Assembly (NCBI GenBank): GCA_944325215.1
Contig: CALUZC010000016.1
Location: 4,231 to 68,230 of the forward strand
Direction: 5' to 3'
Length of the DNA: 64,000 nt
From: an uncultured Mucispirillum sp.
Lineage (GTDB): Bacteria > Chrysiogenota > Deferribacteres > Deferribacterales > Mucispirillaceae
Shown here: positions 10,509-62,810 of the stretch, piece after piece
How positions within the stretch are numbered: the first letter of the stretch is position 1
Layout of the letters: each line of letters opens with the position of its first letter
Translations under genes and position numbers: made by a program
Notes under the pieces: generated by a model
Told to the model about the DNA's origin: nothing
Seen by the model: only the letters and a program-made list of their open reading frames with translations
Databases searched by the model: none

Positions 10509-10579
10509 ATAAACCTCCGTTATTTTATTTTTGAAATACTGCTACATATTAAATCCTCTTCCATTATATATTTGTAACT

Positions 10580-11782: not shown

Positions 11783-11796
11783 AATACATCTCCTTA

Positions 11797-20200: not shown

Positions 20201-22900
20201 ACTGGTATATCCTGTAACACCATCACCACTTCCAGCTTCAAAGACTTCACTGCTAAACTCTAATAAATAAGTTCCATGTGTATATTGAGTAAATAAATCT
20301 GATAAATCAAACTGAGCAATACCCTTTTCATTTGTTTGAGTATCACTAATATCTGGAGTGTATGCTTTTCTAATACTGCTTACACTATCTACATAAGGAT
20401 CTGTAAATGAATATTTTTTTAGTTCTGGAAAATAATACCGTGTAGGAGCAAATGATACTTCTGATTTAACTCTTCTGTTTGCAGCAGGAGTTCCAATCAT
20501 ATTATCCGCTTTCACTTCAATATTAATTTTATCTGGGTTTATCCAGCCTTTTGATTTATTTTCTTTTACAGAAGCATTCACACGTATTGTATCTGTATCA
20601 AACTCTTTTAATTCAAAAGATACAGCACCTAAAGATGATTCAAAATCACCTTTATTATTAAGAAGATAAACTCTTACATAATAATTACCAGTAGTAAAGT
20701 ATGGCTGAGTTTTTAAAACAGTTTCAAAAAAACCTGAACTATCAAGAGAGTAACTTTCTTTTAAAACCACTTCATCTTTTGGGGAAGTAATACTTATTTC
20801 AACAGGAACACCTGCTAATTCTTTTTTCCATGCAGTATCTTTTATAATGCTTGCAATGTTTACATCTTCTCCCGGTCTATAAATTCCTCTGTCTGTAAAC
20901 ACCATTGCTTTTAAAGCATCTGCATTTGATATATACTCGCCACCAATATCAAACTTAGAATACTCTATTTCTCTTTTATAATCAAAAGGCAAATAAGTAA
21001 AATCATTATCCTTTCTTGCCACTATTGCAATTGGTGCGTTGTTATCATTTGCAATCTCATATTGAAAATGACCATTACCATCTGTTTGACCTGATACAAT
21101 AGGAAGACCATTTTTACCAATAACTTGAATTTTAGCATTCTTTACAGCTTCACCTTTTGATATAGAAGCAATAAATACATCTGTCTTATTACTTTTATTG
21201 CTTTTTGCAATAATATACATATCCGTAACAAGAATAAATTTGGACATTTCAACATAACTACTATATCTATTATCGTAGTAATCATCATAATAATAATCAT
21301 CATAGTCATTATAACTACTATTACGTATTTTTTTACCTTCTTTATCTAAAGATAATGCTTTAATATAATATAAACCTGGCTGTCCACCTAAATATTCAGC
21401 AATATTTATTGTTGCATAACTAGGATATATTTTATCTGAAGATGCAAGTGGAAGTTTTGTATTTTTATATTCTGAAAAATTAGTTTCATCTATTGAACTC
21501 GAATTAAAATTAACTTCCCCTAATCCTTTACTTGTAGAGAAATTAATAATATGCTGTATTTGCTCTGGAAGTATTTTCCCAATAGATATATCTAATGCAC
21601 TAGCGCCACGGGATTCAAAAGTAATGTTTTTTTCACTGTTTAATGAAAGCAGTGTTCCTTTTTGTAAAATACTTAATGTTGGTTTTATTGGGTCTAATGT
21701 AACTTTATCTTCAATATCTGTTCTTAAAGCAATCCCTGAAACTGATTTTAAATTTTTATTTATAACTAAATGTAATGATGTGCTTTCTTCTACATCACAA
21801 TTTATTTTAAATGAATGAACAACATCTGCATTATTACCTGTATCAATTGGTGTAACAGTAACTTCTATATCTCTATCATAATCATAAAGTTTTAAGTTTT
21901 CTATTAAATCAGCCATATTTACTGCTTCGGAAAAAGTTAAAACAAGTGTATGTCTAGGGTTATTTTTTTCATCTCGAACTATTGGTGCTGAAGCTGTATC
22001 AAGATAAAACCTTGCCCCTTCACTTATTTTTTCCACAACATAAGAATGGCTTATTTCATAAAGCAGCTTACTGCTGCCTGTAGCACTTTCTATTCTTGGC
22101 AGCGAAAACATTAATACCTGCTGTTTATTATCAACCATTTTAAATTCATCAGAAACTATCTTTGCACCATACCCATCTTTATCAAATATGACTTTAAATT
22201 TTAATTTATCTTTGTTAAGCATTAAGGAAGATTCTTTTTTAAACTGTTTTTGGTTAAATAAATAATTAAATTTTATATTAAGAATATACTGTTGCTCATT
22301 ATTATTAAAATCATTATTGATATTTTCAGAATTTATATAATAAGTAAATGGTTCTGTTCTAAAATTTGTGGATAGTTTACTTAATTTATAATATGTATTA
22401 AATAATGACTTATCCATACTAATAGTATATTTAGTATCAGCAGTCCATTCTGATGATGGCATAAAAGTAATATTTTTACCATTATTACTACCTACCCATT
22501 TACCTTTAATTTCGGGGCTTATTTTAATAAAATCACTGAGTTCTTTTCCCTTATACTTATTTAAAAGTGCAGGATTTGCATCATCAGATGAAAAAATTAT
22601 TTTTAAATTAGAATCTTTATTTTTAATATTACTTGATTTAGGTGTTTCAAGATTATAAGTTAATAATACATTATGCTTTATTTTATTACTATCATGTTCT
22701 GATGTAGCAGTGGCTTGCGATGATATATCCACCTGAACAGAAGATACTGCTTCATTTGATACACTTGCATTATTATCTGCTGTTTGCCCAGATATAGTCT
22801 CCTGCTGGCTGTTATCAGAAGTGTTGCTATCATCATTTTTTCTACAACCAGAAAATACTAATAAAAAAATAAATATAATTAAATAAATCTTTTTTGCCAT
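17201..22900 (-). CDS. Bacterial alpha-2-macroglobulin family lipoprotein (YfhM-like) with an intact thioester motif
   Basis: I chose the start at ATG 22900 (MAKKIYLIIFIFLLVFSGC, a lipoprotein signal), not the track start at 22942. About 1900 aa with the thioester YGCTEQ present. It is adjacent to pbpC and co-directional with it. Confidence 0.9.
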   Translation of the reverse strand: MAKKIYLIIFIFLLVFSGCRKNDDSNTSDNSQQETISGQTADNNASVSNEAVSSVQVDISSQATATSEHDSNKIKHNVLLTYNLETPKSSNIKNKDSNLKIIFSSDDANPALLNKYKGKELSDFIKISPEIKGKWVGSNNGKNITFMPSSEWTADTKYTISMDKSLFNTYYKLSKLSTNFRTEPFTYYINSENINNDFNNNEQQYILNIKFNYLFNQKQFKKESSLMLNKDKLKFKVIFDKDGYGAKIVSDEFKMVDNKQQVLMFSLPRIESATGSSKLLYEISHSYVVEKISEGARFYLDTASAPIVRDEKNNPRHTLVLTFSEAVNMADLIENLKLYDYDRDIEVTVTPIDTGNNADVVHSFKINCDVEESTSLHLVINKNLKSVSGIALRTDIEDKVTLDPIKPTLSILQKGTLLSLNSEKNITFESRGASALDISIGKILPEQIQHIINFSTSKGLGEVNFNSSSIDETNFSEYKNTKLPLASSDKIYPSYATINIAEYLGGQPGLYYIKALSLDKEGKKIRNSSYNDYDDYYYDDYYDNRYSSYVEMSKFILVTDMYIIAKSNKSNKTDVFIASISKGEAVKNAKIQVIGKNGLPIVSGQTDGNGHFQYEIANDNNAPIAIVARKDNDFTYLPFDYKREIEYSKFDIGGEYISNADALKAMVFTDRGIYRPGEDVNIASIIKDTAWKKELAGVPVEISITSPKDEVVLKESYSLDSSGFFETVLKTQPYFTTGNYYVRVYLLNNKGDFESSLGAVSFELKEFDTDTIRVNASVKENKSKGWINPDKINIEVKADNMIGTPAANRRVKSEVSFAPTRYYFPELKKYSFTDPYVDSVSSIRKAYTPDISDTQTNEKGIAQFDLSDLFTQYTHGTYLLEFSSEVFEAGSGDGVTGYTSVKVSPSDYLVGYTTDSYLYFLNTNEKASVNFIAVDSNLNKISKPDMRYRVSQITYSSQLIKDSYGRYRYSNVKRYNVINSGNISITEQGTNINLPTNIAGDFVYEVINEDNIVVGKVDYYVAGNEDIDTSVAQESELLLKLDKEEYKAGDTVNLSITAPYSGYGLITIEKEKVYTYKWFKSNTNTMTQSIKIPNDLEGNGYINVTFVRDITSKDIFTKPLSYAVMPFSIDKSKRKIDITLKTPEIVMPGDNITVEYSAAKNGKIIIYGVDEGILQVAGYKLPDPLNYFMRKVALSVRTTQTADLILPDYNILSDVYGVGGGEDAVMAKMAAKRLNPFARVVEKPAVFWSKIIDVKAGDKNKYTVKVPSHFHGSIKVMAVAVSKDGVGSSETSFISRSPVVLTPNMPYAAVQGDKFRMSVGVTNLIGKQAQEDIKITAVPSKHFNIVGDNFKTVTVKEGGEALVIFDVVVTDELGSGEITLKVENKNLEKPLQTKITSSIRPVVPYRTEIAVGSFKSKDASLKVPNRNMHNLAAKREVMVSANPLYAVAGIGSYLKYYPYGCTEQITSKIYPVVMLATTDKNVNTKEVQDVYEAYIKELTSRQKGKNGFTYWNGGSYVYDLPAIYATQFLIDARELGYNVPNSLYNNAIDYLKSISNSRPEYLEDAQDIAFATYLLARNGIVSARALNVLEDYLSKKYDNWESSLTAAYMGATYILYKNEEKGRKLLESSIPEYTKYLFRYDFDDSLTNTARYIYLAGRHAPDIVKANPILVKRLLDDINEGYYNSFSSAFSFAALYGLGKSADDMPTYADAGKGITVDKTNKNKAEFDAKIKEINVSFKENNPVGYYYHITTTGYDKELPSKQSKGLNITKTFYDKNGEKITSAKQGDEVTVSIKISRNDSHYGEKTMIAITDLIPGGTEILTKNGVNVPRAYEFHEFREDRAIIYLNMYNDYDETITYKLKMLSSGEYLVPPTYGESLYNRDIYAVGNNFNFAINDAE

Positions 22901-22916
22901 AATATAACTCCACTTA

Positions 22917-24959
22917 TTAAAACTCTTTACTACTTGCATCATTCAAAATATCGTTTGAAATTCTCCCGACTTTATCTGATACTTCTTTTGTTGAAACAGC
23001 TACTTTCAATGTGCTCTCTGTTACAGACTGTAACTCAAGAATTGAGTTTCTCATTTCCTGCATTTCCATTGTCTGTGTAGTAATTGCAGTATCCATATGA
23101 TTAATAGCTTCCACTAATGCATTTGTATTATCTGAAATCTCATGCAGATTTTTTTGTGTTCGTTCAGCAAGTTTTCTCACCTCATCTGCAACAACTGCAA
23201 AGCCTCTACCATGCTCACCAGCACGAGCTGCTTCAATTGCAGCATTTAATGCCAGCAAATCTGTTTGGTCTGCCACATCATGTATAACTTCAATAATACT
23301 TCTTATGGCTTCTGAATGCTCTACAACCTCTTTTGCTCTTGTATTCACTGATTCCATAGATTCATTTAAATGATTTAATGATGAAATATTCTTAGACAAA
23401 TGGCTGGACTGAGTTTGAGCACTACTTTCTAAGGTATCAACATGATTTTTTAATTCATCAGATGAACCCATAAGATTTTCACAGGTATTCATTGATATAT
23501 GAAGCATTTCACGTATTCTTTCACCCATCAAATTAATACCTTTTATTACAGATAATAATTCACCATCAAGCATACCTTCATCAATTGATGCTCTAAAATC
23601 ATTATTTGAATATTTAGCTACAACTTGTAAAATTTCCTGCATTGTAGTATTTAAGTTATTAAATGTTTCATTAATATTATCTTTTAACATATTTAAAGCA
23701 GGGTTGCTGGTATATGCATGAATTTTTACATTTAAAAATCCACTTTTAACTTTTGCTGATACTTCTAAAGATTCCTCTATTAGTTTTTTATCTTCATCTA
23801 ACCCTTTTTGCAGTAAATCCACCTGTTCTGTAATTGCATTTGAAACAGCTAATATCTCATCATTACTTTTTGATTTATATGATATTTTATTGCTTTTATC
23901 CCTATAGCTTATACTATCAAAAAAATCAAACAATGAAACAGTCATTTTTCTAAGTGGTATAATAATAGCAAATCTAATTACAATATTAATAGAAAAAAAT
24001 AATACTAATAAAAAGACGATAACACTTGCGAATATTATTGTTCTTAGAAATAAAATATCATTAATATAATCACTTTCTAAAGCACTAATAATAATATTCC
24101 AGCCTAAATCACTATGAAAAATATCTTGTGCTATATAGTCATTGTTATCATATTTATAGTGAAATGTTTGGTTTTCCTTAATTACATTATAAAAAGAAAG
24201 GCTGCTTGGTTTATCTGCTAAACTCCCTATTGTAAATGCATCATTTTTTTTATCAAAAGCCATAATATAGCCATTTGTTCCTATTTTAATACTTTCAATA
24301 CTTTCTCTTAAAACTTTATATGCAGGAGTAAGATTATAGCCTATAAATAATATACCTGTAACATTATTACTTGTATCTTTTATTGGCTCATAAAAAGTCA
24401 TATAGTCATTACCAAAAAGAGTTGCCTTACCTATATAAATTTCACCTTTCAAAACAAGATTATATGCAGGATGATTATGGTCTAATTTAGTCCAAATAGC
24501 ACGGTTGCCATCTGCATCCTTTAAAGATGTTGTTATTCGTATGAAATCATCACCATCTCTTGCAAATACAGTAGCAACATCAAATGTTGTAGATGAAAAT
24601 TTATCTAAAACTTCTGTATTACCAGTAAGTAAATTATCATATAAGTAATATTCTGGATAGCCATCAGCATTTTTTCCTCTTATTTCAAACTCGGTAGAAC
24701 TACCATAATTTGATTCAAGAAAATATTTAAATACAGACATGGAGTTTTTGCTGTTTTCTTTTAACTGACCTATTAAATTATTAAAAGAACTATTAACTAA
24801 AAGTGCAGCTTCTTTAATGTTCATTTCAGCACTAGACTGGGCACTTTTTGAAGCATAAATACTAATGAAAAAAAATAGCACTATTACTAAAATAGCAATT
24901 ATTGGTGCATTAGTAATAAGAATTTTTCTTGCAATTGAAGCATTTTTTAGAGTAAACAT
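22917..24959 (-). CDS. Methyl-accepting chemotaxis protein with a periplasmic double-Cache-like sensor
   Basis: AGGTGA SD. The N-terminal TM segment is followed by a periplasmic domain of about 270 aa, a second TM, a HAMP domain, and the conserved MCP signalling domain ([38 protein letters not shown]). Confidence 0.9.
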
Positions 24960-52141: not shown

Positions 52142-53416
52142 TTAATTTGATTGTGCACTAGGTAAATTTGCAGCTGCAGCATTATAGTTATCTTTTAAAG
52201 TTGTGCCTGCTGCTGTTGGAGTAGTATCATTAAAAAATTTACTTACTACATTTGTAGTAAATGATGCACTATCTGTATTAAAATCACTGTAATTATTTAC
52301 TCCACTTTTTTGTAATTCTGTAATAATCACTGGTACTATACTTGCGTTTGCATAAGCTGCATCTGATGCTGGATTAAATGTTGCAAGTTTAGTTCCACCA
52401 GCTTTTATTAATGCTCTATAAAATTCTAATGCTCTATTTTTAGATTTTTGAGTTGCAGTAGTTGACTCATAACCTGTTAAGCCAGATAATATCATTGTCG
52501 GAAAAATCATTTCATCCATTCCACTTGTTGAGATTGCTTCTTCATCTTGATTTCCGCTTGAAGAACTTTCAGCATAACCATATTTTTCAAAAATACCAGT
52601 TAATTTAGCCATTAATGCCATCATAGTAGGAAGAGCACTTGGCATACTGCCACCGTTTGCTAAAATAGGCATAACTTTAAATTCTGGTGTTGGTTTATCA
52701 TAGTTTACAATATTACTAGAATAATCACCTTGAGCAATAAAAGCCTGTGCTATTTCATCAAGCATTGCTTTCTCATTTGGTAAAACATATTCGTTCTTAA
52801 TACCTTGAATACCAGTTGAACTGTTGTTTAAATAACCTATTAATGATGAATTAAGATAAACAATATTTGCTCTTGCATTTGCTCTTGCATTTGCACTTAT
52901 ATTAGTGGCATTAAGAGCAGATTGTAATGAATCAGAAAGTGTAATAATACTTTGACTGTTATCATTAACTCTTTTTAATGTTGTAATTAAAGTTGACCCA
53001 CTGCCAGACATAAATATCTGCATAACAGATTGTAAAAAACTACTAGTAGGTTGGCTAAGAATACTATATTTTAATACTTCAGCACTAACAGGATTCTCTG
53101 CGATTATTTTTGCAATTGCTGTTGCTATTTCTTCATTTGCTACTTCACCAATCCCTGAAGCTGCTGGCATTCCACCTCTGCCAGTAATGTTTTGAAGCAG
53201 ACTTTTAATATTTGTTTCTGCTTGGCTGGAAAATGTGCCAGTATAAGCTGCACTTCCTGTGTCATCTGTTACATATTTTTTAAATTCATTAGTAAAAGCA
53301 TCATCAACTTTATTAAGCTGCTCTTGGGATGTCTGTCCATCTGTAGGCTTTGTAGTATCTTCAGCACAACCTGCTACTAAAAATACTAAAAAAGCAAATA
53401 ATAAAAATTTTTTCAT
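52142..53416 (-). CDS. Ala/Ser/Thr-rich surface lipoprotein containing an in-frame tandem repeat
   Basis: AGAGGT SD. Lipoprotein signal MKKFLLFAFLVFLVAGCAED. Low-complexity A/S/T/N composition, with the repeat ANARANARAN. Confidence 0.6.
   Translation of the reverse strand: MKKFLLFAFLVFLVAGCAEDTTKPTDGQTSQEQLNKVDDAFTNEFKKYVTDDTGSAAYTGTFSSQAETNIKSLLQNITGRGGMPAASGIGEVANEEIATAIAKIIAENPVSAEVLKYSILSQPTSSFLQSVMQIFMSGSGSTLITTLKRVNDNSQSIITLSDSLQSALNATNISANARANARANIVYLNSSLIGYLNNSSTGIQGIKNEYVLPNEKAMLDEIAQAFIAQGDYSSNIVNYDKPTPEFKVMPILANGGSMPSALPTMMALMAKLTGIFEKYGYAESSSSGNQDEEAISTSGMDEMIFPTMILSGLTGYESTTATQKSKNRALEFYRALIKAGGTKLATFNPASDAAYANASIVPVIITELQKSGVNNYSDFNTDSASFTTNVVSKFFNDTTPTAAGTTLKDNYNAAAANLPSAQSN
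52865..52900. repeat. 12-bp tandem repeat (atttgctcttgc x2 plus a degenerate third copy) encoding (ANAR)n inside the lipoprotein CDS
   Basis: Read directly. The unit length is a multiple of 3, so copy-number change would keep the frame. Confidence 0.5.
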
Positions 53417-53487
53417 TTTTTTACCTCTAATTAAAATTTTTTGATATTGAAAATCTTTATCAAATATCTCTCAAAAAAATTTGAATA

Positions 53488-54210
53488 TTATTTTAAGTAA
53501 AAATCCACAGGGACTGTTACTTTTAAATATTCATTATAAGAATTATTGTTTACAGCATTTAAGCCAACAATTTTTTGTGCTGCTTTTAGTGCAGCATTAT
53601 CAAGTACAGTATAACCAGAGCTTTTAGTTATTTCTGCACCTTGTACCACCCCATTTTTTTCTATAGAAAATGTAATATTTGTAATACCTTCTGCATTTAA
53701 CCTTCTAGCCTGCTTAGGGTATTCTTTATAACGCTCCATCATATAAACAATATTGGCAGCAGCTTCGTTTTTCATATCTTTTATTTTACTTACTTCACTA
53801 CCTGCTACTGCTTTTTGTGATGATTTTGCAACTTTTACATTTTCATTTTTGGGTTTAATTTTCTTAACTTCCTTTTTATCTTTTTCTTTTCTTGTTTCCT
53901 GTTTTGTTTCCTCCTTCTTTTTAATTTCTTTGTAACCATTATAGATTATAAATTCGCTGTAATCTGCTAGTAACCTCCTTTTTTCTTGGTTATTTATTTT
54001 TATATACTCAGTAGTATCTATACTCTCCTTTAAAAACTCTGCTTTTGCTACTTCAAGCACTTTTTGCGATACAAAACTTATATTTAGTATAAAAAGTACT
54101 AAAAATAATATAATAAGCATAAAAAAAGATATTCTTTTGCTTTTTATATATTCTTTCTCTCTCTCAAAATAGTTATGTATTGGATATGCTTTTTTTGCTT
54201 TAATATTCAT
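53488..54210 (-). CDS. tonB: TonB energy-transducer (N-terminal TM, Lys/Glu-rich spacer, C-terminal TonB domain)
   Basis: TM segment FFMLIILFLVLFILNISFV, spacer KKKEETKQETRKEKDKKEVKKIKPK, and a C-terminal domain of about 90 aa. Confidence 0.8.
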   Translation of the reverse strand: MNIKAKKAYPIHNYFEREKEYIKSKRISFFMLIILFLVLFILNISFVSQKVLEVAKAEFLKESIDTTEYIKINNQEKRRLLADYSEFIIYNGYKEIKKKEETKQETRKEKDKKEVKKIKPKNENVKVAKSSQKAVAGSEVSKIKDMKNEAAANIVYMMERYKEYPKQARRLNAEGITNITFSIEKNGVVQGAEITKSSGYTVLDNAALKAAQKIVGLNAVNNNSYNEYLKVTVPVDFYLK

Positions 54211-54216
54211 AATTTT

Positions 54217-54603
54217 TTATTCCACTACATCAGTGCTTATTATAAATTTTCCATTCCTTTCTTTTTTTGCAATATCAATAATATTTACAAATGATTGAAA
54301 AGGTGCTGATTTATCAATATAAAGATTTAACATCTTATCAGTATTTGCATCTAATATACTTTTAATTTCTTCTTCTTTTATTAATGTATTATTATAATAA
54401 ACATTACCGTCCTTTGTAACGGATATTAAAATTTCCTGTGTCTGAGTTTCCTTACCTTCTGCCATTTTAGATGCAGGAAGTATTACATCAAGCACAGGTT
54501 TTGAAAATGTGGTAGTCATTATAAAAAATATTAAAAGCATAAATACAACATCTATTAATGGTGTCAAATCAATATTTATTTCTTCATCAATATCAAATTT
54601 CAT
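54217..54603 (-). CDS. exbD: ExbD/TolR biopolymer transport protein
   Basis: AGGTGA SD. N-terminus INIDLTPLIDVVFMLLIFFIMTTTF is the ExbD signature. 128 aa. Confidence 0.85.
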   Translation of the reverse strand: MKFDIDEEINIDLTPLIDVVFMLLIFFIMTTTFSKPVLDVILPASKMAEGKETQTQEILISVTKDGNVYYNNTLIKEEEIKSILDANTDKMLNLYIDKSAPFQSFVNIIDIAKKERNGKFIISTDVVE

Positions 54604-54611
54604 AATATCAC

Positions 54612-55220
54612 CTAACCATTAGCATTATGTTTTTTACAAATGTCTAATGCTCTGTAACTGTGCTCAATAGCTTCAAAATTAAATGCTCTAAATTTTAGCA
54701 TTAAATAGTAATATATAATAAGTACTGGTATAGCAACCGTTAGCCCCATAATAGTTGTAAGCAATGCTTCCCATATACCACTTGCAAGGGAAGCAGCATC
54801 TGGGCTTTGCTCTACTGCTATCACCTGAAATACGCCAACCATACCTAAAACTGTACCTAAAAGCCCTAATAGTGGGGAAATAACTGAAATTAACCTAAGC
54901 CATACTAATGATTTTGATACATGCTCAAAATTTCTATGGAAAAGGTATGCAACCTCACTTCTTATATCTTCAGAATGTTCTCCATGTATGTTTATTATAT
55001 CCCTAATAATAGCTATTAATGGATTATTGGTATTATTACACGCTGAAATAATATCATTACGGCTTTCATAATCTTTATTTAAAAAGTTATGTTTAAACCC
55101 ACGCCATACAATATTTAGGTATATTAATATTCTAAGCCCTATAAATAGAGCAGCTACAGCACATATAATTAAAGCTATACCTGCATAACCTATTTGATTA
55201 TAAATAGTTACAATATCCAT
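54612..55220 (-). CDS. exbB: ExbB/TolQ (MotA family) proton channel
   Basis: Three TM helices and a conserved C-terminal MotA/TolQ/ExbB region. Confidence 0.85.
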   Translation of the reverse strand: MDIVTIYNQIGYAGIALIICAVAALFIGLRILIYLNIVWRGFKHNFLNKDYESRNDIISACNNTNNPLIAIIRDIINIHGEHSEDIRSEVAYLFHRNFEHVSKSLVWLRLISVISPLLGLLGTVLGMVGVFQVIAVEQSPDAASLASGIWEALLTTIMGLTVAIPVLIIYYYLMLKFRAFNFEAIEHSYRALDICKKHNANG

Positions 55221-55223
55221 AAC

Positions 55224-56441
55224 CTATAACCCTAAACGGTTTACAAACCCTGTAAATACATTTTTTGCCATTTCTAAATCATTATTATCTGGGTGAGTTT
55301 GAGCTTCTAAAAGCCTTTCTTTTCTTTCTGGAGTCATAGGGTGGCTGTCCCCCATAAATTTACCCATATAATCAATTAATTTTTCATCTATTTTCCCAAG
55401 ACATAAAAAGCTGCCTAACACATTATTATTTTTGCCAGAGATTTTAAGCATATTTTCACTATCTCTTATACAGCCTTTTGCATGTGGTGAATCAGGATAA
55501 GCTCCAAGAGTACCAAATAACCCTATATTCATATTTTTAATAGAGTTTATAAACTTTTTACTTTTTGCATCAGGAAGCCCTCTATCTACCCAGTAACCTA
55601 TGGCAAGAAAATAATATTCATCTATGTTTTCAGGCAAATTATCAATAGAGCATATATCACAGTTTGGTATAACGCTTTTAACTGCTTCTGCTACTTTTTT
55701 AGTATTACCTGTTAGAGATGAATAAACCACAAGGCTTTTTCTATCCAGCGATTTTTCCAGTGCAAACCCATCTTTCATTTTATAAAATGATGTTTTTACA
55801 CTTTCTATAATCTGCCTGTTTTGTCTGCCTGCATAAACTGAAAAAATTAATCCGCCTGATTTATCAAAAAATAATACAGAACAGCTTTCAAGAGTCATAA
55901 ATGGCATAGTTGAAAAGGCAATACTGTATATATTATCTGCTTTAATATGACCACCTAAAGCAGATTCACCCATTATATTATAATATCCATGAGCATTTGT
56001 GCCTTCATCTATTTTTGTAGATATTTCAAAAGCAGAGCCTTTATACTCTACTATAACTGTTGCTTTTTCCCAAGTGGCAAGTTCTTTCCAAATCATTTCA
56101 AAATGACTGCCTTTTGTAATAGTGCATATTTCTTTAGGCAGTGCATAACATACTTCAAGGTCACTTACACCATACATCTTTGCAAAAGCAGAAATAGTAA
56201 AGGGTTTTTTCTCCTGTAGTAAATTTGGTAAATCCTGTTTTAGTTTTTCAAACCCTAGCACTTTTTCTTCTATTATCTCCTCTATTTGAGGTTTATAATC
56301 AAAAGGTAATGGTGGTTTCCCACCTGCCATTTTATTTTCACTATTAGGGTGTTTTTCACCATGAGAATGTTCCCCTTTATGACCGTGGTTTTTTCCATGC
56401 TGATGTTTATGACCGTGTTGATTTTCTTCTTTATGGCTCAT
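55224..56441 (-). CDS. Three-part fusion: His-rich N-terminal tail + ChuX/HutX-like haem-binding domain + flavodoxin-like domain
   Basis: N-terminus MSHKEENQHGHKHQHGKNHGHKGEHSHGEKH. The middle (HGYYNIMGESALGGHIKADNIYSIAF...SVLFFDKSGGLIFSVYAGR) aligns with E. coli ChuX (HGYFNLRGKHGMSGHIKAEN...SILFFNKEGSAMLKIFLGRD). The C-terminus (LVVYSSLTGNTKKVAEAV...) is a flavodoxin fold. Confidence 0.7.
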   Translation of the reverse strand: MSHKEENQHGHKHQHGKNHGHKGEHSHGEKHPNSENKMAGGKPPLPFDYKPQIEEIIEEKVLGFEKLKQDLPNLLQEKKPFTISAFAKMYGVSDLEVCYALPKEICTITKGSHFEMIWKELATWEKATVIVEYKGSAFEISTKIDEGTNAHGYYNIMGESALGGHIKADNIYSIAFSTMPFMTLESCSVLFFDKSGGLIFSVYAGRQNRQIIESVKTSFYKMKDGFALEKSLDRKSLVVYSSLTGNTKKVAEAVKSVIPNCDICSIDNLPENIDEYYFLAIGYWVDRGLPDAKSKKFINSIKNMNIGLFGTLGAYPDSPHAKGCIRDSENMLKISGKNNNVLGSFLCLGKIDEKLIDYMGKFMGDSHPMTPERKERLLEAQTHPDNNDLEMAKNVFTGFVNRLGL

Positions 56442-56456
56442 ATTATCTCCTTTTTA

Positions 56457-57890
56457 TTAAACTGCCTGTTGCTTTAAACTGTCACTAAATGGCAGTCTAA
56501 TAGCATACTGGCATATATTATTTATTAATTCTAAATCATGGGTAATAACTACTACAGCCACCCCTTTATTCGCTAAATTTTGCAAAATATTTGTTATACG
56601 CATCATATTTCTTCCATCAAGCCCACTGGTTGGCTCATCAAGTATTATAATGCTTGGCTCTTTTGCAACGGCACAGGCTATTACAAGACGCTGTTTTTCT
56701 CCACCTGAAAGTGACTGCGGATGCCTTTCTTTTAAATGATATAAATCAAACTGGTTAAGCAGATTATTTGTTATTTCTTTTTTTTCATCTTCTGTAATAT
56801 TATTATGAGAAACATCTACACTCATATATATTTCATCATAAGTAGATTTCATATAAAGCTGAAAATCTGCATTTTGCAGCACAAGTGATGCAGTTTTTAC
56901 AAGTATTTTTTTATCTATCTCTTTATTATTTATAGTTATTTTTCCCGTAATATTTTTATTTATACCCGTTAAAAGTTTTGCAAGTGTGGTTTTACCTGCC
57001 CCATTTTCACCAAGAATGGCAGTTACTCCAAAAGGAACAGTAAATGATGCATTATTAAAAAGATTTTCTTTACCCTTATAGTTAAATGAAAGGTTTTCAA
57101 TATTAATAATATTTTTACTGCTGTTTTTATAATCTGCCAGCGTGCTGCGATTATCAGTAATTTCTATATCTCTTAAACCATATATTTTTCTAAATTCATT
57201 ATTAAGTAAAATACTAAAATCACCTTCTTTTACTATTTCACCTTTACTCATAACTATAAATCTATCTGCTATATCTTTTGTCCAGTAAAGCCTGTGGTCT
57301 ACAATTAAAATGGCATAGCCTTGTAATTTTAAATATTTTATTTTCTCTGCTAATTCATCAGTTGATTCCACATCTAAATTAGCAGTAGGTTCATCTAAAA
57401 TAATGACTTTTGCTTTTTGTAATATTATACCTGCAAGCCCAACTTTTTGTTTCTGCCCTTCTGATAAATCATTTACAGATGATGATAAAATATGCTGTAT
57501 TTTAAATTCATGAGCTGTTTTATTTATTTCTTTTTTTATTGTATCTGCATCTAATCCCTTGCACTCTAAAGCAAATGCAAGCTCATCATCCACATTTAAT
57601 GCGAAAAACTGCTGTTCTGGGTCTTGAAAAAGTGAGCCTGTATAATTTGAAAGCTCTCCTATGGTTTTTTCTTTTGTATTTTCATTACAGATAAATACAT
57701 CACCACTTAATTCGCCTTTATAATAATGAGGGCAAAGCCCATTAATAAGCCTAATAAGTGTAGTTTTGCCACATCCGCTGACACCAGTACAAACCACCAA
57801 TTCACCAGATTTAACTGATAAATTAATATTTTTTACAGCCTCTTTATTTTGATATGGGTATTTGTATGTTACATTTTCTAACCTTATCAT
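56457..57890 (-). CDS. ECF-type transporter ATPase, fused duplicated A/A' subunits
   Basis: Two ABC cassettes: GVSGCGKTT ... LSEGQKQKV and GENGAGKTT ... LSGGEKQRL. 477 aa. The stop overlaps the T-component start. Confidence 0.85.
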   Translation of the reverse strand: MIRLENVTYKYPYQNKEAVKNINLSVKSGELVVCTGVSGCGKTTLIRLINGLCPHYYKGELSGDVFICNENTKEKTIGELSNYTGSLFQDPEQQFFALNVDDELAFALECKGLDADTIKKEINKTAHEFKIQHILSSSVNDLSEGQKQKVGLAGIILQKAKVIILDEPTANLDVESTDELAEKIKYLKLQGYAILIVDHRLYWTKDIADRFIVMSKGEIVKEGDFSILLNNEFRKIYGLRDIEITDNRSTLADYKNSSKNIINIENLSFNYKGKENLFNNASFTVPFGVTAILGENGAGKTTLAKLLTGINKNITGKITINNKEIDKKILVKTASLVLQNADFQLYMKSTYDEIYMSVDVSHNNITEDEKKEITNNLLNQFDLYHLKERHPQSLSGGEKQRLVIACAVAKEPSIIILDEPTSGLDGRNMMRITNILQNLANKGVAVVVITHDLELINNICQYAIRLPFSDSLKQQAV

Positions 57891-58690
57891 CTATGTAAAC
57901 TCCTTAAGCTTTCAGGCACTTCAATATAGCTTTGTACAAAAAATGCACTTACTAATACTGTTGCAAAACTTATAAGAAGCAATAAATCATTTATAGAAAA
58001 CGATAATCTCTTATACGGTGTTACTTTTACATCGTTTCCTATTCCTTTTAATTCAGCAGCTATTCCCAATTCTTCTGAAGCTCTTAAAGACCTAAAAAGC
58101 AGTGGCATAAAAAGGTAGCGTCCCATTTTTACAGGTTGCTTTAAAAGAGTAATAAATTTTACTTCAATACCCCTTGTTGCAAGCGACTGCATTATCTGCT
58201 TTATATCGTTTATAAAAGCAGGAATAAACCTTATCATTACAGCTACTGGCAGGTAGATAAATAATGGCAGATTAAAACTTTTTAGTGCTGTTAATATACT
58301 TTGTATATTTGTAGTAAAAGCTAAGGGAAGCACTACATTTACCATAGTGACCATACGCATAAAAGGAACTGTTATGGCAAAATATGACCTGCCCTGCATA
58401 AAATTTGTAAAATAATTTATTATATATATGCTTGTAACAGCGATTATCATAATAATAGTTACAAAAAGATAAGTAAGAACCATTACTTTTGGTTTTCTCA
58501 TATATAATGCATATATAAATGAAGCAGCTAAAAGCACTATTTGAGCATATATACTGCTTAATATAATAGCAGCAAGCGAAGTCAGTGCTGTAATAATAAG
58601 CTTTGTTCTAACATCTATTAAATATAAGCCTTTTAATTGAATATTATTTTTAACAGATAAACTTGTATTAACTGCGAACGATTCCTGCAT
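57887..58690 (-). CDS. ECF transporter transmembrane (T) component, CbiQ/EcfT family
   Basis: 267 aa with 5-6 TM helices and a C-terminal coupling region, RSLRASEELGIAAELKGIG. The ends overlap with neighbouring genes on both sides. Confidence 0.75.
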   Translation of the reverse strand: MQESFAVNTSLSVKNNIQLKGLYLIDVRTKLIITALTSLAAIILSSIYAQIVLLAASFIYALYMRKPKVMVLTYLFVTIIMIIAVTSIYIINYFTNFMQGRSYFAITVPFMRMVTMVNVVLPLAFTTNIQSILTALKSFNLPLFIYLPVAVMIRFIPAFINDIKQIMQSLATRGIEVKFITLLKQPVKMGRYLFMPLLFRSLRASEELGIAAELKGIGNDVKVTPYKRLSFSINDLLLLISFATVLVSAFFVQSYIEVPESLRSLHR

Positions 58691-59213
58691 ACCTTAACTC
58701 CTTAACAGCTTTTATTCCTGTATATAACCCAATTATAGCCCCTAGATATCCTATAGCAATAATAGGTATAACAGCATATACAATTTCAGGTGTTTCTCTC
58801 ATAACCATATAAGCTAAAAACATAGAAAGCACTCTGTAAGATAAATCAAAAGCTGCTACACCAATAATTGGAGCATATTTATTCTTCATACCACCAAAAA
58901 GAAGTATAAAAAATTCACCAATAAATGAAGCCATAAACATTCCTAAAGAGGTGGAAGCTTCTGCCCCCATTAAAAGCAGTGATACTATTAATGATACAAA
59001 TGTAAAAAGCATAATCGTTCCACTTTTTCTTACCTTGTAAAGCATAACTATGAAAAAAGTAGTAAATATAAGGTTTTTAATAAGCAGAGTAACAGGGTTC
59101 ATTCCACCACCTGCTAAAGCAACAACCATTGTAATAACTTTTGCAGCAGCTGCAAAAACACCTATTGTTACAAGCTCTTGTATACTCCAGTGATGTTTTA
59201 AGTTTTTATACAT
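58668..59213 (-). CDS. Putative ECF substrate-capture (S) component of unknown specificity (haem inferred from context)
   Basis: 181 aa with 5-6 TM helices and a size typical of S components. It is positioned immediately upstream of the T component and ATPase. Confidence 0.55.
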   Translation of the reverse strand: MYKNLKHHWSIQELVTIGVFAAAAKVITMVVALAGGGMNPVTLLIKNLIFTTFFIVMLYKVRKSGTIMLFTFVSLIVSLLLMGAEASTSLGMFMASFIGEFFILLFGGMKNKYAPIIGVAAFDLSYRVLSMFLAYMVMRETPEIVYAVIPIIAIGYLGAIIGLYTGIKAVKELRYAGIVRS

Positions 59214-59229: not shown

Positions 59230-61320
59230 TTAAAAAGCTGCCGAAAATTTTACGGCTCCATATAAGCCCGGTTCATATATATCTACAGATGTTTTATATA
59301 GTGTATTCAACAGGTTATAAACTTCTGTAGACAAGCTATATTGTCTATCCTTACCAAAATCTACACTTATTGCTATATTTGCAGTGCCCCATGGTGCATA
59401 ATATAAGTCTGATGTAAACTCTGAATGGATAGAATCAAGACTGTCTATGGTTTCACTTGAAAACCTGCTAAATAAATCAATGGATAAATCAACATAATCA
59501 TTAAATGTATGTAAATAAGCAAGACCTGCCCTGCCTGATACTAAAGGAACTCCTGTTTTCCATGTATAAACCCCATTATCACTATATCTTCTTTGCATTA
59601 TAGTAAGTGAAGTATATGGTTTTAGCCCAATAGGCGATGTATAAGATAAAGAAAGCTCTGCTCCATGAGTTAATGCGTTTGATACATTTTTATATTTTGT
59701 AGCAGAAGAACCTGTACTAACTGGCACTTGTGCTATATAGTTATCTGCCAGTGATACAAAGTACACAGCATCTAAACCAACACCGTAATCATTATATCTA
59801 ATACCAAACTCAAAATTATTGCTTGTTTCAGATTTTAAATCAGGGTTAGGGTAAATGGTGCCACCACCCATTGATGATAATAGATACCGTTCCTGTAAAT
59901 TAGGTGAACGAAAGCCTTGTGAAAAATTAAACCTTATACTAAAATTTTCTATTCCAGACCACATAATACCTGCTGCAAATACTGGAGCGTTGGTTGATGA
60001 TATACCTGTATTTCCTATATCTTCAACACTTAATGGCGTTGAACTTCCTGTAATTTTATCTATTCTAACCCCTGCTGCTTTTTCCATATTTGCAATGTTA
60101 TATGTCCATCTTACACCATAGAATAATGTAAAATCCAAAGGCAGGTAAGATTCAGCTTGAGCATATAAAGCATGTATCTGTTCATAACCATAGTTTTTTA
60201 CATGTTTATTGTAATTCATAACATCTAAAATAGTGCTTGTGGAATCAACACTTGTATCAGCATCTAGAATATTATAATTAAAATCATAACCTGCTATAAT
60301 ATATGTATGGTCACTTATTGCCCAGTCTGTTTGAAGCTGCAACCCCCACTGGTTATTATAATTATCTGCATAGTTATCCATTGTAGCAGGCATAAATACT
60401 ACATTTGGGTCAAGCTCCACATGGTTATGCATTTTTTTATGGCTTTGCTGGTAAAATAAATCAAGCCTTAGTTTTGGCATAAAAGATACAGCTTCTTTTA
60501 CTTCAAAAAATAATGCTGCTTTTTGGCGAGACCATAATGGTAAATCTACATAAAATTTTTCATATCCTACAGCCTGACTGCCTGAAGATATATCTGAAGT
60601 AAAATAATCATAACTTGCACCTAGTTTATAGTTATCATTAAAATTATACGCTAAATATGCACTATAATTTTGCTGTTCAAAAGCAGAATACGGCACTAAA
60701 CCAATAGGTGTTCTTAGCTGCTGCTGCATATTATTTGATGCTGTAACTCTGTATTCTACTCCATGAGTTTTACCAAAAATAGAAGCAGATTCAGAATGCC
60801 CTTGAGAAGCACCGTTATAGGAAAGATTAATAGAGCCTTCTATTGGTTTTTTACCACCTTTTTTTGTGATGATATTAATAACACCACCAATAGCGTTGGA
60901 GCCATAAAGCACAGATGATGGCCCACGAATAATTTCTATACGTTCAATTAATGCAGTATCTATCATTAATGCTGTGCCGTCCATAGATTTATTTTCAACT
61001 ATCTGTTGTCCATCAATTAATATTAAAGTTCTATTAACTCCCTCACCACGAAGAGATATTCTTTTTAGCCCCTGCCCTCCAGAATTTGATATCTGCACTC
61101 CAGGAACATCTTGTAAAAGTTCACCAACTGTTCTAGCTGATGATTTTTTAATATCTTCTTCTGTTACTATAGAAACAGAAGAAGGCACTTCTAAAAGCTC
61201 TTTTTCAACTTTTGTGGCTGTCACCTTTACTGCCGTTGTTTTAATATGGTTTTCTTCTTGAGCATAACTATTAAAACTTACAAATAATATTAAAACAGTA
61301 CAAACGACTATCTTTATCAT
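59230..61320 (-). CDS. TonB-dependent outer-membrane receptor
   Basis: Signal peptide ...SYA/QEE. Plug-domain motifs (VTATKVEKE...VPGVQISNSGG...ISLRGEG...ILIDGQ). Barrel of about 600 aa ending in the aromatic terminus ...FSAAF. Confidence 0.85.
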   Translation of the reverse strand: MIKIVVCTVLILFVSFNSYAQEENHIKTTAVKVTATKVEKELLEVPSSVSIVTEEDIKKSSARTVGELLQDVPGVQISNSGGQGLKRISLRGEGVNRTLILIDGQQIVENKSMDGTALMIDTALIERIEIIRGPSSVLYGSNAIGGVINIITKKGGKKPIEGSINLSYNGASQGHSESASIFGKTHGVEYRVTASNNMQQQLRTPIGLVPYSAFEQQNYSAYLAYNFNDNYKLGASYDYFTSDISSGSQAVGYEKFYVDLPLWSRQKAALFFEVKEAVSFMPKLRLDLFYQQSHKKMHNHVELDPNVVFMPATMDNYADNYNNQWGLQLQTDWAISDHTYIIAGYDFNYNILDADTSVDSTSTILDVMNYNKHVKNYGYEQIHALYAQAESYLPLDFTLFYGVRWTYNIANMEKAAGVRIDKITGSSTPLSVEDIGNTGISSTNAPVFAAGIMWSGIENFSIRFNFSQGFRSPNLQERYLLSSMGGGTIYPNPDLKSETSNNFEFGIRYNDYGVGLDAVYFVSLADNYIAQVPVSTGSSATKYKNVSNALTHGAELSLSYTSPIGLKPYTSLTIMQRRYSDNGVYTWKTGVPLVSGRAGLAYLHTFNDYVDLSIDLFSRFSSETIDSLDSIHSEFTSDLYYAPWGTANIAISVDFGKDRQYSLSTEVYNLLNTLYKTSVDIYEPGLYGAVKFSAAF

Positions 61321-62720
61321 AAACTCACCTTTTCACCTGTTAAATTATTACTACTGTTAAACTGCAAAGTCAGTTTAATATATTCCTGCAAAAGCTGTGA
61401 AAGGTTTACAAACCAAAACTGACCTGCAAGTGTTAAAATAATTTTATTATTTTCATATTTAATAACACCTGCATTTTCCCACTGTTTTAATAATCTGCTG
61501 CAAATATCAGTAAGTGGAAGGTTATATTTATTTTCTAAATATGCCAAATCTAAATAACCTGTTTCAAAATATTCACTTATTTCTTTATACATGCTGTAAT
61601 TTTCACCTGGTATGCTTATACCCATAATTGGTTTTACGCCATTTTTCACAGCTGCTAAATAGCCTTGATAATCACGCAGTATCATATAACTGTGACCATT
61701 AATATTTCCACCTGCTCCTGCACCAAAAGAAAGGCAGCTGGCATAACCACGAGCAAGCCTGTTATATATATTTCTTTCTCTTGTAGTTCTTTGCCAATGG
61801 TTTACACTAATTCTTGTGTATAGTGCCTTCTGCATAAGCTCTACACTTTTTATAAACAGCTCTGTTTTCTCTTTAACATTTAAGGCAGGGTTCATACTGC
61901 CATCTGCAATACGTTTACCAAGAGGGGTGTTTGGAAATACATTTAACTGGTAGCAGTCAAACCCATCTATTTCTAAACTTTGAGCAAGTTTTATATCATC
62001 AACCCAAATATCCATAGTCTGATTAGGAAACCCATATATTAAATCAAGCACAACAGCAGCCTGATTATATTCTTTTATCATATTAATTCTTTCTATAATT
62101 GTATCTCTGTCACTTCTTCTACCCATTGAGCGTCTTAAATCAGTATTAAAACTTTGCACTCCTAAAGAAAACCTGTTTACACCACCTTGAAGGTATGCTT
62201 CAACTTTTTCTTTTGTCATATTAGAAATTCTACCTTCCATAGTAATTTCACAATCATTGGCAAGAGGAAATGTATTATGAATATAAGTTAAAAGCCTTGA
62301 TATATCTTCCACTTCTAAGGCTGTAGGTGTGCCACCACCAAAATAAAGTGCATTTATAGGTTTTGTTTTAAATGCAGTAGTATTTTCCCAAAGTTTAATT
62401 TCCTGAATTAAAACATCTGTATATATTCTACTCTGCTCTTTTCTATAAGGCTGATTATAAAATCCACAGTATAAACAGTGGGTTTCACAAAATGGAACAT
62501 GAATATATGCAGCAGTTCTATTATTCCTTTCTTGGTTTAAAACACTTTTTAAAACTTCCTGAGTCTGCTCTTTTGGTGCAAAGCTATCCATAAGTCCTGC
62601 ATGCACTGCCGACTTTTTACTAAAAGCATCAACAATAACATTATCACTTTCATTTACACAATATCTTTCAAAATTATCTTCTGGATTTATATTTTCTATT
62701 TTTTTATGAAAAGTATCCAT
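61317..62720 (-). CDS. HemN-family radical SAM enzyme, HutW/ChuW-like (candidate anaerobic haem-degrading methyltransferase)
   Basis: I chose the start at ATG 62720 (AAGGAAG SD). Radical SAM cluster motif CETHCLYCGF, with a HemN_C-like C-terminal domain. It is the first gene of the operon that contains the TonB-dependent receptor and the ChuX-like gene. Confidence 0.75.
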   Translation of the reverse strand: MDTFHKKIENINPEDNFERYCVNESDNVIVDAFSKKSAVHAGLMDSFAPKEQTQEVLKSVLNQERNNRTAAYIHVPFCETHCLYCGFYNQPYRKEQSRIYTDVLIQEIKLWENTTAFKTKPINALYFGGGTPTALEVEDISRLLTYIHNTFPLANDCEITMEGRISNMTKEKVEAYLQGGVNRFSLGVQSFNTDLRRSMGRRSDRDTIIERINMIKEYNQAAVVLDLIYGFPNQTMDIWVDDIKLAQSLEIDGFDCYQLNVFPNTPLGKRIADGSMNPALNVKEKTELFIKSVELMQKALYTRISVNHWQRTTRERNIYNRLARGYASCLSFGAGAGGNINGHSYMILRDYQGYLAAVKNGVKPIMGISIPGENYSMYKEISEYFETGYLDLAYLENKYNLPLTDICSRLLKQWENAGVIKYENNKIILTLAGQFWFVNLSQLLQEYIKLTLQFNSSNNLTGEKVSL

Positions 62721-62793
62721 GCTCACTTCCTTTATATTGATTTTATTTCTCAATAACATATACATCATTTAATAATTATTTGCAAGAGATTTT

Positions 62794-62810
62794 TTGATAT
62801 TTATTATCAA
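62794..62810. promoter_or_regulatory. Imperfect AT-rich palindrome ttgatatttattatcaa in the divergent promoter region. Candidate Fur-like operator.
   Basis: Read directly. 13/17 positions are symmetric and it resembles GATAAT-type Fur half-sites. Specificity is low in an AT-rich genome. Confidence 0.2.

Follow-up and report, generated by a model that had tools for sequence, protein, structure and literature searches.

The window analyzed here, a 64-kb stretch of DNA from a gut Mucispirillum (Deferribacterota), carries a minus-strand operon in the order hutW, TonB-dependent receptor, ECF S component, ECF T component, fused AA' ECF ATPase, HutX-flavodoxin fusion, exbB, exbD and tonB. The first gene, hutW/chuW (61317–62768), encodes a radical SAM methyltransferase of anaerobic haem degradation (TIGR04107), and its stop overlaps by 4 nt the start of a haem-receptor-like TonB-dependent outer-membrane receptor with plug and beta-barrel domains (59230–61320). 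The receptor is followed by S (58668–59213, 181 aa), T (57887–58690, 267 aa) and AA' (56457–57890, 477 aa, two ABC_tran domains), with S overlapping T by 23 nt and T overlapping AA' by 4 nt. Beyond these lie a gene for a cytoplasmic haem-handling fusion composed of a His-rich tail, HutX and an HmuF/FldH-like flavodoxin (55224–56441), exbB (54612–55220; MotA_ExbB, 89.9 bits), exbD (54217–54603; ExbD, 83.8 bits) and tonB (53488–54210; TonB_C, 59.2 bits). From hutW to tonB, neighboring genes overlap or are separated by gaps of 3–16 nt. A minus-strand gene on the far side of tonB (52142–53416) encodes an orphan all-alpha lipoprotein of 424 aa that may be a lineage-specific accessory. The ORF list confirms the three ECF reading frames and both of their overlaps as reported in a first-pass annotation of this DNA, and the flanking genes, with the receptor and HutW upstream and the fusion downstream, are also as that annotation described them. 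Gene calls made independently on four contigs from metagenomes return S, T and AA' with identical lengths and overlaps; the three ORFs are real genes and not chance reading frames. The true start of hutW is likely at position 62720, giving a protein of 467 aa: a GGAAG ribosome-binding site stands ahead of this ATG, and the metagenome gene calls of HutW are likewise 467 aa long.

This arrangement extends across several diderm lineages. The sample comprised 80 species-representative genomes that carry the S subfamily, covering Deferribacterales, Desulfovibrionaceae, Sutterellaceae and Succinivibrionaceae, and neighbors were counted only where the contig reaches. Across the 80 genomes the genes run in the order hutW-TBDR-S-T-AA'-hutX-fld-exbBD-tonB, and the operon is common to Mucispirillum, Desulfovibrio, Bilophila, Mailhella, Sutterella, Parasutterella and the Succinivibrionaceae (Succinivibrio relatives). 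HutW accompanies S at 68 of 68 loci, AA' at 73 of 73, HutX at 69 of 73 and a flavodoxin at 70 of 71. An S/T overlap of 20–23 nt recurs in 59 of 77 related loci, in keeping with the earlier proposal of a complete ECF module (S, T and fused AA') dedicated to this locus. The label 'Group II-style' that had been attached to the module is incorrect, since S shares an operon with its own T and A components and the system is thereby group I (dedicated), as are the Co/Ni systems; the group II layout, in which S is unlinked and the module is shared, is not what is found, with S adjoining T in 77 of 77 loci. The remark that such transporters are rare partners of TonB-dependent receptors also needs amending, because it fails for this S subfamily, which has a receptor at 72 of 72 loci, and because a Ni/Co precedent exists. 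CbiMNQO/NikMNQO and nickel-regulated TonB/outer-membrane clusters (PMC4284471, citing Rodionov 2006) provide that precedent, namely a group I ECF importer downstream of a TonB-dependent outer-membrane step in diderms; these systems differ from the one described here in having CbiM/NikM with a small N subunit and N-terminal metal-ion binding.

Gene fusions and more distant relatives also bear on the function of the module. In Mucispirillum, HutX and the flavodoxin are fused in one protein. Geothrix sp. 21YS21S-4 offers a Rosetta-stone fusion, in which a ChuX_HutX domain (84 bits) forms the C-terminal part of the AA' ATPase; neighboring genes encode S, T, a receptor and a HutW equivalog (520 bits). 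Some S relatives at 29–39% identity are still found with a receptor together with a radical SAM, ChuX_HutX or PNPOx-family (HutZ-like fold) gene. In a sister subfamily (loci L088 and L090/L091), S-T-AA' occurs without any haem genes; this counts against a haem function. Two loci assigned to Firmicutes (Oscillospiraceae and Acutalibacteraceae) encode S proteins 87–89% identical to that of Sutterella beside receptor and TonB genes and are therefore probably misbinned contigs; a spread into Firmicutes was rejected.

The genes around the ECF module supply a complete set for anaerobic haem degradation, consisting of a HutW equivalog, a HutX carrier and an HmuF/FldH-type flavodoxin. HutW scores 498 bits against TIGR04107 (cut-off 400) and has a CxxxCxxC motif at residue 94. 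The fusion scores 138 bits against TIGR04108 HutX (cut-off 110) and 163 bits against Flavodoxin_3, and its PDB matches include ChuX/HutX structures and, at 3e-25, the 172-aa 'Flavodoxin' entry 8g64, which we take to be F. nucleatum FldH. The FldH haem ligand His134 and residues A147/H150/P151/D155 are conserved in the fusion, as read from an alignment in which a 3-residue PDB tag offset is assumed. The parts of a TonB-dependent uptake system are also present (receptor, ExbB, ExbD and TonB). The receptor, whose N-terminal residues resemble a signal peptide that ends in SYA|QE, falls below the haem-receptor cut-off: its best NCBIfam match is TonB-hemin at 196 bits (cut-off 317), followed by the hemoglobin/transferrin/lactoferrin family at 180 bits, again under cut-off, the B12 (BtuB-type) family at 125 bits and the siderophore family at 118 bits. 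No His column in the receptor reaches 85% conservation among 72 sequences.

The S component matches Pfam Trep_Strep (PF09605) at 35.3 bits (gathering threshold 28.7, E = 1.5e-8) over profile positions 2–129 of 185 alone, and NCBIfam MptD (TIGR02185) at 26.2 bits, under the curated cut-off of 76.45. Based on these profile matches, S is assigned to a divergent, compact subfamily of Trep_Strep/MptD. Proteins of this family are about 190 aa long, highly hydrophobic and marked by a basic motif close to the C-terminus; S, at 181 aa, ends in KAVKELRYAGIVRS, and a KELRxAG motif is kept across the subfamily. The AF2 model of S contains six long helices and one short helix (143–147) and has the ECF S-component fold. 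A phmmer search of 1.84 billion representatives with S returned 96 relatives, and related sequences form 746 clusters at 90% identity. All named relatives belong to diderm lineages, with no staphylococcal or streptococcal members among them, and a search that started from sister-subfamily protein P0219 gave no Gram-positive relatives. A PDB sequence search with S returned nothing at E values up to 10, and tblastn of S against plasmids gave chance matches alone.

The T component matches Pfam CbiQ at 70.3 bits (threshold 25) and the EcfT chains 4huq/4hzu/5d3m at 1e-6. Its two coupling-helix motifs read x-R/K173-G174 and L-K215-G216, with an invariant Lys replacing Arg in the second. The AA' protein, in which Walker A, signature and Walker B are intact in both halves, has ECF_ATPase_1 as its best NCBIfam match (310 bits, cut-off 315); when the PDB was searched with AA', double-NBD exporters filled the top ranks and the result was uninformative. 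No gene for a solute-binding protein was found between hutW and tonB, nor in the collinear loci and the flanks that were examined. The S-component fold, the T motifs, the two ATPase domains and the lack of a solute-binding protein together describe an ECF importer.

What, then, does this importer carry? HutW, HutX and the flavodoxin are cytoplasmic, and therefore haem must cross the inner membrane to reach them. Within the conserved operon, no importer is encoded other than the ECF module, which is embedded between the receptor and HutW on one side and the HutX and flavodoxin genes on the other, and no PBP, FecCD-type or HmuTUV genes were found in the operon, in the sampled 64-kb window or in Sutterella and Desulfovibrio flanks. 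In Gram-positives, import of haem by ECF transporters is proven (PMC7299338; bioRxiv 10.1101/864751). We consider it likely, on the basis of sequence and gene context, that S, T and AA' constitute a dedicated (group I-style) ECF importer that moves haem from the periplasm to the cytoplasm for anaerobic degradation. The haem specificity implied by the first-pass annotation thus gains strong backing from genomic context, with the cargo still a prediction, as are the direction of transport and the hand-off steps. In the proposed scheme, the receptor, powered by the operon's own ExbB-ExbD-TonB, would carry haem into the periplasm, where the membrane-embedded S component would take it up directly and without a periplasmic binding protein. 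ATP hydrolysis by the fused AA' protein, acting via the T scaffold, would then release haem into the cytoplasm, and the HutX and HmuF-like flavodoxin domains would accept it and pass it to HutW. Ring cleavage by HutW would free the iron, and the flavodoxin domain would reduce the anaerobilin product.

The S component itself provides some evidence against haem as the cargo. A conserved haem-ligand His was sought in S and none was found; the protein contains no Cys at all, and His occurs only at positions 7 and 8, which are predicted to lie on the cytoplasmic side. This lack of a periplasm-side His or Cys differs from LhaS of Staphylococcus lugdunensis, for which spectra suggest His ligation (PMC7299338). 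Two candidate ligands are not universal either, as Y156 is invariant in the core clade only, P0174 and P0181, two distant relatives in a haem context, having lost it, and M38 is conserved at 86%. Because a conserved haem-ligand His is absent from both S and the receptor, no ligand is firmly proposed, and the receptor's score below cut-off weighs on the same side. A bolder form of the haem-import reading, which we offer tentatively and regard as rather unlikely, is that the operon encodes a third, binding-protein-free haem route in diderms. The His-free S component would take haem straight from the receptor, possibly within a TonB-organized trans-envelope assembly, the ATPase would hand it directly to HutX, and haem would be channeled to HutW without ever being free. 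The direct step from ATPase to HutX is hinted at because the two are fused in Geothrix.

An alternative hypothesis is that the ECF module imports some other micronutrient (corrinoid, cobalt, nickel, or flavin for the flavodoxin) and that the haem importer is encoded elsewhere. The CbiQ equivalog is the best NCBIfam match of T, and AA' passes the cbiO subfamily cut-off (245 bits against 212), but such matches are generic for ECF modules, and the CbiQ equivalog match reaches 40 bits against a cut-off of 112. The receptor's weaker BtuB-type match and the absence of a recognizable haem ligand motif from S would both fit this hypothesis, and the search for HmuTUV covered the window and two flanks, which leaves room for an importer elsewhere in the genome. 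The S component, however, bears no mark of these substrates. As the first-pass annotation had suspected, it lacks a BioY/RibU/ThiT/CbiM signature, Trep_Strep/MptD being its sole family match. The CbrT or CbiMN match that had been named as grounds for reassigning the locus was looked for and none was found: S is not CbiM, CbrT or BtuM, it has neither the N-terminal Met-His metal ligand nor the CbiN partner of CbiM/NikM-type systems, and it has no CbrT- or BtuM-like character of the corrinoid ECF type. Cobalamin, FMN and other riboswitches were absent from the window and from nine diverse loci, so that the locus shows no cobalamin riboswitch control. With CbiM/CbrT signal and riboswitch both absent, a corrinoid or cobalt reading of S was rejected. 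The strict linkage to HutW and HutX and the AA'-HutX fusion point instead to haem, and we consider import of another micronutrient improbable.

The control region of the operon also bears on its substrate. A Fur-box-like palindrome, TGATATTTATTATCA, lies upstream of hutW (62795–62809) with one mismatch to TGATAATNATTATCA, and a second site with two mismatches, TGAAAATCTTTATCA, which is weak evidence alone, lies between tonB and the lipoprotein gene (53448–53462). Equivalent sites precede hutW in related loci from many lineages, for the most part near -60 to -200; they have no mismatches in 6 loci and two or fewer in 21 of 67, and the median fraction of random windows from the same locus that score equally well is 0.04. 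The perfect 15-mer sites come from six Sutterellaceae. These sites suggest that the operon may be under the control of Fur, a mode of regulation that has been reported for chuW in its E. coli operon (PMC12077173).

Boxes of the Fur type are a sign of an iron-acquisition regulon and so argue against another hypothesis, that the module carries not haem b but a related tetrapyrrole (such as another metalloporphyrin or a porphyrin without iron), or that imported haem serves chiefly as a cofactor rather than as a source of iron. The receptor is under the haem-receptor cut-off, and in one distant relative (locus L089) HutW is missing while the receptor, S, T, AA' and HutX are retained, both of which would suit such a cargo. 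Against this, every core locus that could be counted has the HutW equivalog, and HutX and the HmuF-like domain with its conserved haem-ligand His are haem handlers; a different tetrapyrrole, or a cofactor role, therefore appears very improbable. Could the module instead act on the product side, exporting anaerobilin, its reduced derivative or excess haem as a means of detoxification? Anaerobilin and free haem are toxic (PMC10404700), and in most lineages the operon is otherwise without an obvious exporter. In Sutterellaceae, however, a separate DrrA-like ATPase and ABC-2 permease follow tonB and are better suited to an export role. To our knowledge, every ECF transporter characterized so far is an importer. 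S has the canonical S-component fold and T has canonical coupling motifs, and export by the module would leave the conserved operon without an inner-membrane haem importer, so that we give this hypothesis very little credence.

Haem import by the ECF module can be compared with known systems from both Gram-positive and Gram-negative bacteria. LhaSTA of S. lugdunensis, compared by description, resembles the Mucispirillum module in being a dedicated S-T-A set in a haem locus with a Fur box upstream (PMC7299338). It is a proven haem importer in which LhaS scavenges haem without a soluble binding protein, but it belongs to the Isd locus of a monoderm, where an outer membrane, a TonB system and HutW are all lacking (PMC7299338). 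SiaFGH of Streptococcus pyogenes and Lsa1836-1840 of Lactobacillus sakei likewise place ECF S, T and A components in haem loci, and loss of the L. sakei system, which has a fused AA' ATPase as here, impairs haem uptake (PMC6593403; bioRxiv 10.1101/864751). These Gram-positive loci differ in their additional genes, which are two transcobalamin-like soluble proteins in L. sakei and a classical SiaABC importer in the GAS operon (PMC6593403; bioRxiv 10.1101/864751). Coupling to a TonB receptor or to anaerobic cleavage of the ring is absent from both SiaFGH and Lsa1836-1840. A direct role of SiaFGH in haem import reportedly rests on the work of Chatterjee et al. in 2020. YkoEDC, an ECF transporter for HMP/thiamine precursors (YkoE structure 5EDL), differs in having only 14% identity, another substrate and no link to receptor or haem genes.

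The canonical diderm haem operons, namely F. nucleatum hmuTRUVWF, E. coli O157 chuA-chuTUV-chuWXY and V. cholerae hutWXZ, share with the Mucispirillum operon a TonB-dependent receptor, ExbBD-TonB, HutW/ChuW/HmuW, HutX/ChuX and an HmuF/FldH-type flavodoxin, as well as the overall logic of uptake followed by anaerobic degradation (PMC10404700, PMC10114669). They differ at the inner membrane, where they use an HmuT/ChuT binding protein and the type II ABC importer HmuUV/ChuUV, and S-T-AA' stands here instead with no binding protein (PMC10404700, PMC10114669). Published HmuW/HmuF clusters all have HmuTUV at this position (PMC10404700). In the searched literature, every described Gram-negative haem system combines a binding protein with a type II ABC importer at the inner membrane; no ECF and TonB haem system was found in diderms, haem ECF importers being known only from Gram-positives.

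If true, the ECF alternative would be a new module for Gram-negative haem uptake. It would also pose a mechanistic question, which is how a hydrophobic, toxic cofactor leaves a TonB-dependent receptor and reaches an S component embedded in the membrane with no shuttle protein in between. Several of the gut anaerobes that carry the operon bloom when the intestine is inflamed or bleeding and haem is plentiful, which makes the operon a plausible determinant of fitness and a plausible metagenome marker of haem scavenging. ECF transporters have no human counterpart and are therefore potential drug targets. Assignment of the substrate would, in addition, allow several hundred related sequence clusters to be better annotated.

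The ECF genes lie within a ~9.3-kb run of nine closely packed genes in the window. The run begins with hutW (TIGR04107, 498 bits against 400), followed by the gene for a TonB-dependent receptor whose best matches are haem/haemoglobin receptor families, at scores below cut-off. Next come the ORFs for S (58668-59213, minus strand, 181 aa), T (57887-58690, minus strand, 267 aa) and the fused double ATPase AA' (56457-57890, minus strand, 477 aa). The window ORFs bear out the first-pass annotation of a three-gene set in 56457-59213 with overlaps of 23 nt (S/T) and 4 nt (T/AA'), and gene calls on independent metagenome contigs recovered the same three proteins. By Pfam and NCBIfam, T belongs to CbiQ/EcfT and AA' to the ECF-type ATPases (ECF_ATPase_1, 310 bits; cbiO subfamily above cut-off). 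T matches solved EcfT chains and retains both coupling-helix motifs, with an invariant Lys in the second, and both AA' halves have intact Walker A, signature and Walker B motifs. The sole family match of S in these databases is Trep_Strep (PF09605, 35.3 bits versus a gathering threshold of 28.7), and the NCBIfam 'MptD family' model TIGR02185 falls far short (26 bits versus a cut-off of 76). Because this arrangement is that of a dedicated group I system, the label 'Group II-style' originally given to the module is incorrect.

Downstream of AA' lies a 405-aa fusion (55224-56441, minus strand) of a His-rich N-terminal tail, with 10 His within the first 45 residues, a HutX domain (TIGR04108, 138 bits versus 110) and a Flavodoxin_3 domain; exbB, exbD and tonB, identified by Pfam/NCBIfam, end the run. 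The flavodoxin domain matches PDB 8g64, a 172-aa 'Flavodoxin' (3e-25) that we take to be F. nucleatum FldH. The FldH haem ligand His134 and the linker residues A147/H150/P151/D155 (PMC10404700) are conserved in the window domain when the alignment is read with an assumed 3-residue tag offset, which suggests a haem-trafficking, anaerobilin-reducing type of flavodoxin. Of the 80 genome loci, only those of Deferribacterales (L005-L013) have HutX joined to the HmuF/FldH-like flavodoxin; a deltaproteobacterial MAG (L085) has the two domains joined the other way round, Flavodoxin_3 before ChuX_HutX. The remaining window, as sampled, holds housekeeping genes. Unrelated to the ECF finding, 14896-22942 (minus strand) holds the gene for a bacterial alpha-2-macroglobulin (1913 aa) adjoining one for a PBP1C-type penicillin-binding protein, a known pairing.

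How would haem cross the inner membrane? Since the receptor would bring haem no further than the periplasm, and HutW, HutX and the flavodoxin work in the cytoplasm, an inner-membrane haem importer is needed. In all published HmuW/HmuF or ChuW clusters consulted, this role belongs to a periplasmic binding protein and a type II ABC importer (PMC10404700), whereas the window operon carries the ECF module instead; PBP or FecCD genes were found neither in the window nor in Sutterella and Desulfovibrio flanks. In our view S-T-AA' is probably a dedicated ECF importer of haem and would occupy this slot, after the receptor and ahead of HutX, the flavodoxin domain and HutW in the pathway. The sequence data show the gene identities, architecture, conservation and fusions; cargo, direction of transport, hand-offs between components and regulation are inferred from them. 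The reverse direction, in which S-T-AA' exports a pathway product, is disfavoured. In Sutterella (L022 13601-15300), a DrrA-like ABC ATPase and an ABC-2 permease of exporter type, both assigned by Pfam, directly follow tonB, and about a dozen other Sutterellaceae loci have, at the same position, a BLAST match to the ATPase alone; the pair might serve to expel surplus haem or a product of its degradation.

Is haem the cargo? The complete Geothrix sp. 21YS21S-4 genome (CP132719.1; L092) encodes, in this order, an AraC-type regulator, HutW (520 bits), a receptor, S, T and AA', with no flavodoxin gene in the cluster and no adjacent ExbBD-TonB genes. There AA' (10309-12279, 656 aa) carries a C-terminal ChuX_HutX domain (residues 511-635, 84 bits). 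This Rosetta-stone arrangement, in which the ATPase that drives transport is joined to a carrier of haem in the cytoplasm, points to haem and would be difficult to account for with any other cargo. Another tetrapyrrole is disfavoured as the cargo. A different micronutrient is likewise disfavoured: no Rfam family was found in the window, and therefore no cobalamin, FMN or TPP riboswitch, and none of nine diverse loci has a riboswitch.

Upstream of hutW lies a Fur-box-like palindrome with one mismatch (62795-62809), and a weaker site precedes a lipoprotein gene downstream of the operon. A search with the 7-1-7 Fur consensus through 300 nt of sequence upstream of each of 67 hutW genes gave perfect matches in six loci, all Sutterellaceae, and sites with two or fewer mismatches in 21; most sites fall between roughly -60 and -200. 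Among random windows of the same locus, the median fraction scoring equally well was 0.04. From these sites we infer that the operon, S-T-AA' included, is probably under Fur control.

When species-representative genomes were scanned, 80 loci were recovered, and they belong to Deferribacterales, Desulfovibrionaceae (Desulfovibrio, Bilophila, Mailhella), Sutterellaceae and Succinivibrionaceae. S is 99% identical in an uncultured Mucispirillum, the window organism, and 93% in M. schaedleri. BLAST of the window proteins against all locus ORFs showed the operon to be collinear in all loci. Counting only loci whose contig extends far enough, S co-occurs with HutW (68/68), receptor (72/72), T (77/77), AA' (73/73), HutX (69/73), flavodoxin (70/71) and ExbB (58/69), and S and T overlap by 23 or 20 nt in 59 of 77. 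Locus G+C follows that of the host (0.31 to 0.60), and the operon is thus a long-term resident of each lineage. Two contigs of Oscillospiraceae and Acutalibacteraceae MAGs (L062, L071) carry the full diderm operon, but are probably misbinned since they include receptor and TonB genes and their S is 87-89% identical to that of Sutterella.

Exhaustive phmmer searching of 1.84 billion representatives found only 96 relatives of S, which therefore forms a compact subfamily, far removed from the classical Trep_Strep members. Haem genes still accompany some of the outliers. One (29% identity) neighbours a receptor, a radical SAM gene, AA' and a Flavodoxin_3-ChuX_HutX fusion; another (39%) a receptor, radical SAM, a gene of the PNPOx family, the fold to which HutZ belongs, T, AA', flavodoxin and ExbBD-TonB; and a third (30%) a receptor, T, AA', ChuX_HutX and ExbBD. 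A variant operon (L086/L087, 5105-8004) has a radical SAM gene bearing a PCP_red domain, then DUF2249, DUF1858, a PNPOx_N protein and S-T-AA'-flavodoxin-ExbBD-TonB. In a sister subfamily (L088, L090, L091), S-T-AA' occurs without receptor or haem genes. One sister-group protein is present on contigs of ~290 collection blocks. Sister-group protein P0219 has Leu in place of M38, a tentative candidate haem ligand of S. In a colorectal-cancer metagenome classifier, eggNOG features described as 'Integral membrane protein TIGR02185' and 'Trep_Strep', which may or may not correspond to the haem-linked subfamily, are among the top predictors (PMC8748837).

ECF haem import has been demonstrated in Gram-positive Staphylococcus lugdunensis (LhaSTA; PMC7299338) and Lactobacillus sakei (bioRxiv 10.1101/864751), and the sia haem operon of S. 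pyogenes includes SiaFGH, which carries an ECF-system annotation (PMC6593403). The proposed action of S-T-AA' would resemble these importers, but the window system is linked to anaerobic ring cleavage and to an outer-membrane receptor with a TonB system, and its S lacks the His ligation suggested for LhaS. Ni/Co systems offer a precedent for a TonB-dependent outer-membrane step before an ECF importer (PMC4284471). Full-text literature searches turned up no account of a diderm haem importer built on an ECF transporter, and the operon would represent a TonB-coupled diderm form of an ECF haem import already known in Gram-positive bacteria.
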